A DNA stretch of 64,000 nt from Escherichia phage WPEC2: sequence record PV691511.1. One strand, written 5' to 3'. Below, piece by piece: positions 36,960 to 37,604 of the stretch. A model generated the notes under the pieces. That model was not told where the DNA came from. It worked only from the letters and a program-made list of their open reading frames with translations, and made no database searches. A program made the translations under genes and the position numbers. How positions within the stretch are numbered: position 1 is the first letter of the stretch; each line of letters begins with the position of its first letter.

Positions 36960-37188
36960 TTCTTCCTCCTAATGTTATCTCCGGTTTGTCTATACGAAGA
37001 ATTATAGCATTTTCATTTTCTTTGTCAACCCATTCTTCATAATCGGGCCATACATGAATCTCTACTCTACTTACAATATCTTCCATCCGCACAGTCCCAA
37101 TGAAGTATTCTTTGAGACTGCGCATAATGAAAGCTTCTCTCTCGCGCCAATAATTTTCTACGACTTGAGAGGCAAGCTCGTCGATCAT
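36940..37188 (-). CDS. hypothetical protein
   Basis: 82-aa ORF; ATG overlaps stop (ATGA) of the upstream vWA remnant frame. Confidence 0.5.
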   Translation of the reverse strand: MIDELASQVVENYWREREAFIMRSLKEYFIGTVRMEDIVSRVEIHVWPDYEEWVDKENENAIILRIDKPEITLGGRSVKLRN

Positions 37189-37604
37189 TTTTTAGCACCT
37201 ACTTTAACAACCCACTCTCCGAACTCTTCAGATAAGAGTTTGTCATAAAGCTCTGAATCTGTCAAGTCTAAATCTTTAATGCCAATAAAACCAACATTAT
37301 CGTAAGCATTTGCCAGTTCTTTCAGGAAGCCAAACTTCTCATTACCAACGCCAACCATGAACCAATAAATAGGTTTATTCTTATTCTCTTCAATAAGACG
37401 ACGAACAGCACTAGGATCACCATTCTCACCGTCTGTCTGGAAGAATACAACACCAGGAGTAACGTCAGCACTTGGTTCAGATACAGCTACAACCTTTTCA
37501 CGCTCTACAGATACTGTTTCAGTTTTACCAAGCAGAGAAATTACTACAGAACAAGCCCTTATCGACGAGGGTCGTAAAATCTTAGAAAAGTATTTAGGGG
37601 AGAT
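37185..37604 (-). pseudogene. start-less vWA-domain C-terminal remnant (TerY-like), probable truncated gene
   Basis: 139-codon open frame between stops at 37605-37607 and 37185-37187 with no in-frame ATG/GTG/TTG in first about 85 codons; encodes ...VVFFQTDGENGD...YWFMVGVGNEKFGFLKELAN...; MIDAS DxSxS N-terminal half absent in all frames upstream. Confidence 0.5.

Follow-up and report, generated by a model that had tools for sequence, protein, structure and literature searches.

How does a long open reading frame that encodes part of a recognizable conserved domain come to lack a start codon? This question is raised by a minus-strand locus of Escherichia phage WPEC2, located within the 64,000-nucleotide stretch of sequence record PV691511.1 that was analyzed here in its entirety (hereafter, the window). 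The frame 37185-37604, for which a first-pass annotation had given the correct coordinates, extends from an upstream stop codon at 37605-37607 to a closing TGA at 37185-37187 and comprises 139 sense codons. The earliest ATG, GTG or TTG in this frame is found at codon 83, an ATG at 37358; none of the 82 preceding codons is a canonical start, and an ORF listing of the frame yields just a 57-aa ORF (37185..37358). Frame residues 38-135 match positions 93-194 of the 200-position Pfam profile PF10138 (vWA-TerF-like), with an E-value of 7.6e-20 and a score of 72.4 bits (cut-off, 29.4), a similarity far beyond chance. By profile, the frame thus belongs to this family, with the C-terminal half of the domain only. 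The first-pass annotation was right on this point, as well as on the absence of an early start codon and of a DxSxS (MIDAS) segment in all three frames upstream. Moreover, the N-terminal half of the fold, together with the MIDAS motif, is missing from the frame, from the upstream frames and from the entire window: when the intact gene was used as the query, neither tblastn nor blastn detected a match to its 5' half within the 64 kb. A local split or an intron-like interruption of the vWA gene is thereby ruled out.

The intact vWA-TerF-like gene (795 nt, 264 aa) is found in the related phages WPEC1, WPEC4, WPEC6 and nieznany, and is named CDS353 (XUY43220.1) in WPEC1 and nieznany_189 (QHR69522.1) in nieznany. 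The product starts with MSEKISLKK, contains the MIDAS motif DISGS (in WPEC1 and nieznany) and, in the sibling phage, scores 130.9 bits against PF10138. In the alignment of the window frame with the intact protein, the two are identical from L149 to K264 and show no similarity before L149. The vWA-derived part of the frame, therefore, consists of codons 24-139 alone (37185-37536, minus strand; nt 444-795 of the gene, that is, residues 149-264 and the stop codon) and is 100% identical to WPEC1 CDS353 over 352 nt and 116 aa. Compared with the intact protein, this fragment lacks residues 1-148, the MIDAS motif, the start codon and the ribosome-binding site (RBS). The first 23 codons of the frame (37537-37604, minus strand) are the antisense of an unrelated plus-strand gene, stop-free by chance; read on the plus strand, they encode EITTEQALIDEGRKILEKYLGEI. 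Alignment to intact homologs, which the first-pass annotation had recommended, accordingly places the breakpoint at 37536|37537, 23 codons within the frame and not at the upstream stop codon. The stretch of the vWA gene that is present in the window is matched in 69 phage records, about 60 of which come from relatives more distant than WPEC1, WPEC4 and WPEC6. The WPEC1 and nieznany genes are ~97% identical, and the differences are evenly spread, with no step at the breakpoint, which rules out a natural mosaic boundary inside the gene.

The genomic context of the fragment is that of its intact relatives on the downstream side only. The start codon of the next gene (82 aa; 36940..37188, minus strand) overlaps the vWA stop codon as ATGA, which had been taken as evidence of former membership in an operon; the same layout is present in the intact siblings and represents the normal operon arrangement. 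The window shares with the other Phapecoctavirus genomes the 82-aa gene, an 89-aa gene, a TerD-domain gene of the same operon (36072..36674, minus strand; PF02342, E = 1.5e-28) and a SleB-like endolysin. In contrast to the intact locus, it lacks the whole upstream operon, including the TelA gene (PF05816) that lies upstream of the vWA gene in intact relatives. TerD, vWA-TerF and TelA are known partners in the Ter literature, and the intact phage locus, which combines PF02342, PF10138 and PF05816, resembles the Ter stress-response clusters. Unlike these clusters, the phage version is minimal and phage-borne, and in the window it is interrupted, so that only TerD and the vWA 3' fragment are adjacent. 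In Phapecoctavirus, the genes of the Ter-type cluster are arranged in the order TelA, several small genes, vWA-TerF-like, two small genes, TerD, and the cluster adjoins the SleB-like cell-wall hydrolase annotated as an endolysin (window 35452-36674, minus strand; WPEC1 L001:7577-8635).

Megablast comparison of the window with 50,697 phage records shows that it belongs to a Phapecoctavirus (phAPEC8-like) phage of E. coli. The nearest records are those of WPEC1 (PV659873), WPEC4 (PV682947) and WPEC6 (PV763039), phages from one host strain and a single hospital wastewater source in Thailand, which are 100.0% identical to the window on both sides of the breakpoint; each 25-kb flank shows not one base difference from these siblings. 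A literature search identified no paper on the WPEC phages or their assemblies. About 60 typical relatives are 96-99% identical to the window. The left flank (window 1-37536) is collinear with all relatives. At 37537, where the vWA homology has ended, the megablast matches switch to another part of the same phage genome. This right flank (37537-62536), identical to WPEC1, WPEC4 and WPEC6, is collinear with the typical relatives as well (95-98% coverage, 98-99% identity); at least 64 Phapecoctavirus relatives carry it at 96-100% identity, that is, it is core phage genome. G+C content is equal on both sides of the junction (0.34-0.45); the GC skew alone flips, as a result of the change of coding strand. 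In nieznany, the vWA gene (85575-86369) and the right-flank gene (28001-28330) lie on the same strand, ~57 kb apart, and in typical relatives the right-flank part of the genome is located ~58 kb or more from the vWA gene, in the opposite relative strand orientation. In the window, the vWA fragment and the right-flank gene are adjacent and divergent.

The vWA gene is not the only one decapitated at this junction. Translation shows that position 37537 is the first base of codon 2 of a conserved 109-aa gene, with the counterparts SF1-1 gp79, nieznany_56 and WPEC6 CDS0089; the copy in the window (37537..37863, plus strand) is start-less, its RBS and ATG being absent. In SF1-1, nieznany, WPEC6 and an independent IMG/VR contig, GAGGAGGAAGGAATG directly precedes GAAATTAC, and the native order, GAGGAGGAAGGAATG followed by GAAATTACTACAG, opens the gene product MEITTEQALIDEG. 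The two genes are thus joined head to head, both robbed of their starts. The next gene of the right-hand block encodes a NinI-like metallophosphatase (37860..38603, plus strand; PF00149, E = 2.7e-13) that is annotated in relatives. A 79-aa TTG-started ORF on the strand opposite to the vWA frame is known elsewhere, by exact-protein look-up, in the normal genomic context only. An alternative model, modeled on WPEC1 CDS293, in which the native gene would encode 141 aa and the window copy would be short of 33 codons, was withdrawn, CDS293 being itself a mis-join (see below).

In a three-way alignment, the left parent reads CCAAGCAGA|CGATT, the right parent continues from the breakpoint as GAAATTAC, and the window reads CCAAGCAGA|GAAATTAC, so that the junction is blunt, with no bases shared between the parents. 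The rest of the vWA gene, which is lost beyond 37536 in the window, is marked by the sequence CGATTAAAGAAGCC. The pentanucleotide GACGA occurs near the junction in both parents; the window sequence CAGAGAAATT does not fit a crossover within GACGA, and microhomology was, therefore, rejected and the join treated as blunt. No meaningful inverted repeat is present at the breakpoints either. An indel or frameshift whose correction would restore the vWA gene, another possibility raised in the first-pass annotation, was rejected because the homology stops abruptly and the upstream DNA comes from another locus. The junction is unique to the window: no record among the 50,697 phage sequences spans it, IMG/VR, GTDB genomes and JGI metagenomes contain no copy of a 36-mer that crosses it, and a 600-nt query across it has no match in complete E. 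coli genomes.

The sibling records bear on the right edge of the breakpoint. The complete WPEC1 record contains 903 internal repeats, the lengths of which peak at 77 nt (184 hits) and 153 nt, and pairs of 150-160 nt differ almost solely at the central positions 72-80. These features are the signature of bubble arms that were left unresolved in a k=77 de Bruijn graph and then strung together in the deposited sequence. Such debris is found, for example, at 4.8-5.7 kb, 28-31 kb, 54-63 kb and 158-161 kb of WPEC1, with many annotated 30-aa 'genes', and the region 50-72 kb is a patchwork that is matched in no other record. The sibling records, at 161.3 kb (WPEC1), 155.8 kb (WPEC4) and 155.3 kb (WPEC6), exceed the ~150 kb of typical relatives by 5-11 kb and, although identical in sequence, differ in large-scale order among themselves and from typical genomes.

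Only two sites in the 64 kb of the window match the WPEC1 debris, 37537-37613 and 63288-63441, and the breakpoint falls on the first base of the first of these. This 77-mer (K1; 37537..37613, plus strand) has four extra isolated copies in the WPEC1 debris and occurs in arms of 154-155 nt with the structures K2+TG+K1, K2+CG+K1 and K2+TA+K1, which correspond to the start-codon variants ATG, ACG and ATA of the 109-aa gene. K1 is the first invariant 77-mer past the branching point, so that a graph edge, and hence a contig, starts at 37537. The node itself results from sequence variation in the start codon, which shows up as bubble arms; a natural dispersed repeat behind it was considered and rejected because the segment that precedes the node in WPEC1 (segment R) is single-copy in typical genomes. 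We estimate the probability of an exact coincidence of the breakpoint with a node by chance at ~1e-4, given about 5 node boundaries per 64,000 positions. In the WPEC1 arms (L004/L005), several haplotypes are kept at two tiny sites, one corresponding to the 2 nt just ahead of window position 37537 and the other at codons 34-35 of SF1-1 gp64, where GAC-RRA-RAT is present in all eight A/G combinations; the mismatches between arms are mostly transitions. These haplotypes could reflect a heterogeneous population, mixed phages or an artifact of the chemistry.

The two debris-matching sites bound a 25.8-kb block (37537..63365, plus strand; 25,828 nt) that is contiguous and 100% identical in WPEC1 (107110-81283), WPEC4 (45583-71410) and WPEC6 (35058-60885) and, to judge from this conservation, behaves as a single assembly contig. 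The left neighbor of the block is different in each of the four records. In WPEC6, it is the native RBS and ATG; in WPEC4, debris; in the window, the inverted vWA fragment; and in WPEC1, segment R, whose native place is 6.85 kb upstream, before another gene (SF1-1 gp62-gp64). As a consequence of the WPEC1 arrangement, CDS293 is an artifactual in-frame fusion in which 33 codons from the start of a gp64-like gene run into codon 2 of the 109-aa gene.

Taken together, these observations indicate, with a probability of roughly 0.8, that the junction 37536|37537 is a contig-concatenation artifact or, equivalently, an end-to-start join of the record, and that the phage itself most probably carries an intact vWA gene. 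The flanks are 100.0% identical to the siblings and collinear with ~60 relatives, the vWA gene is intact in all three siblings of identical sequence, and the junction itself exists in none of these genomes, nor in IMG/VR, the GTDB genomes, the JGI metagenomes or the E. coli genomes. The join is blunt and cuts two ORFs, the G+C content is uniform across it, and no promoter-like site precedes the fragment. Furthermore, WPEC1 is demonstrably a concatenation of k=77 graph pieces, four records that are identical in sequence each place something different before the start of one and the same block, and the breakpoint lies on the first base of one of the two debris-matching sites. A biological breakpoint has no reason to hit a k-mer graph boundary exactly, which argues for an assembly join over a biological scar. 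The check for assembly error that the first-pass annotation had suggested was, accordingly, apt. Its description of the locus as a scar stands insofar as the fragment is what is left, at the 3' end, of an operon gene that was formerly complete, and fails insofar as an assembly join is indicated and not biological recombination.

Under the mis-join explanation, two assembly contigs that are not neighbors in the phage would have been joined at 37536|37537. The left contig would end within the vWA gene, at 37536, and the right one (37537-63365) would start on the first base of a k=77 graph edge, where the graph would branch at the variable start-codon position of the 109-aa gene, 37537 being the next base. 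Placement of the two contigs end to end, with one of them inverted, would yield the blunt head-to-head junction and deprive each gene of its 5' end. The 139-codon frame would then result from the antisense of the neighboring gene happening to remain free of stops for 23 codons in the same frame, and no expression would be expected from it. In a variant with the same meaning, a linear record that ends with 37536 and begins with 37537 would have been read as circular. Whereas the contig start at 37537 is directly visible in the sibling data, we infer that the record of the window was built in the same way as those of the siblings, and likewise the reason for which the left contig ends at 37536. 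As in the k=77 SPAdes-type contig mis-joins of WPEC1, WPEC4 and WPEC6, the right breakpoint is at a node edge, the block is shuffled as a unit, and the join is blunt and free of homology. Unlike those records, the window contains no internal 77-nt duplicates, so that the k=77 signature stems from the siblings, and the left breakpoint (vWA nt 443|444) is neither a repeat nor a graph node in WPEC1, the sole sibling graph that was fully examined, and has no flanking inverted repeat.

The strongest competing explanation, which we consider unlikely, is a genuine large inversion by illegitimate recombination, which would have broken the vWA gene in two, deprived the 109-aa gene of its start and left the fragment as a true pseudogene. 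The junction has exactly the geometry of one end of an inversion, the flanks are otherwise intact and collinear, and the left breakpoint has no assembly-related explanation. In addition, a branch in the graph would likewise be expected if part of the phage population had truly been rearranged. It is this lack of an explanation for the left breakpoint, together with the origin of the k=77 evidence in sibling records, that keeps the inversion in play. With nieznany as the reference, the inverted segment would span ~58 kb, and with Schickermooser as the reference, ~84 kb or its complement; the reciprocal junction would be expected ~58 kb or more away, beyond the window, so that its absence here is uninformative. 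However, 25-kb flanks without a single base difference from siblings in which both genes are intact are hard to reconcile with such an event, as are the absence of the junction from every collection searched, the lack of microhomology at the join, and the coincidence of the right breakpoint with a de Bruijn contig start whose partner is different in each sibling record. Were the inversion real, which is improbable on this evidence, it would be very recent, would span ~58 kb or more, and would have left an isolate that still propagates; the vWA gene and a second conserved gene would then be dispensable in a Phapecoctavirus, as would the orientation that two large genome modules usually have to each other.

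Somewhat less probable still is that the join is the wrap of a linear record treated as circular, in which case 37536 would be the last base and 37537 the first, and the deposited sequence itself would be free of the artifact. Position 37537 is the kind of contig start at which a record built from concatenated contigs would be expected to open, and the join is blunt, without overlap; nevertheless, the records of WPEC1, WPEC4 and WPEC6 neither start nor end at these positions. A physical genome end at the breakpoint is unlikely as well, given that the records of typical relatives begin near the 63-64 kb region of the window and beyond. Terminal repeats of 342 bp have been described in a related phage (PMC12210895).

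A functional truncated protein, with translation from a non-canonical start yielding the C-terminal vWA piece on its own, is a very improbable alternative. No stop interrupts the 139 codons of the frame, and the ATGA overlap still couples it to the next gene, but the initial 23 codons do not derive from the vWA gene at all, the 82 codons that lack a canonical start are followed by an ATG (37358) with no Shine-Dalgarno sequence ahead of it, and no promoter-like site upstream of the fragment exceeds the shuffle expectation. Furthermore, the MIDAS motif and half of the fold are missing, and the 57-aa product is not on record in any gene in exact-protein look-ups. These sequence features imply that the fragment, whatever its origin, cannot be a working gene. 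Finally, the insertion of a foreign genomic island into the operon, which the first-pass annotation had favored in view of the truncated gene and which the flip of the coding strand at the breakpoint would fit, can be dismissed almost entirely: the right flank is core and not foreign, its G+C content is unchanged, the window has no internal repeats and hence none flanking an insert, and no insert in the window is followed by the missing half of the vWA gene.

If the junction is a mis-join, as we favor, the biological weight of the locus is slight, the vWA-TerF-like gene being an ordinary gene that is conserved in phAPEC8-like phages. The caution for users of these data is of more consequence. 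The source record of the window and those of WPEC1, WPEC4 and WPEC6 carry assembly-level scrambling, which creates false pseudogenes, false fusion genes (WPEC1 CDS293) and inflated genome sizes, so that conclusions on gene content or synteny drawn from these WPEC records are not to be trusted without the reads.

The window contains a second discontinuity, at 63288-63445 and 63366-64000, where all relatives cease to match at ~63367. An element of ~77 nt within 63288-63445 is present in 11-13 copies in the WPEC1, WPEC4 and WPEC6 records, and in phAPEC8 and ESCO37 the counterpart of the last 635 nt of the window lies 5-6 kb farther on, with the strand unchanged. The discontinuity is either a deletion in a variable early region or a repeat collapsed in assembly.

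Elsewhere in the right-hand block, a 91-aa ORF (40464-40739, plus strand) matches the Acb2/Tad1 hairpin domain (PF24729, E = 1.2e-16), which makes it a candidate anti-CBASS or anti-Thoeris protein that would act as a sponge for cyclic-nucleotide immune signals. Three neighboring small acidic ORFs on the plus strand (40255-40452, 40697-40957 and 40967-41239) have no match in Pfam. They share a W-x-S-S-(S)-x-C tail (NWHPSSLSC, VWHSSSC and VWISSSSMC, respectively) and may constitute a small paralogous family with a conserved C-terminal motif.
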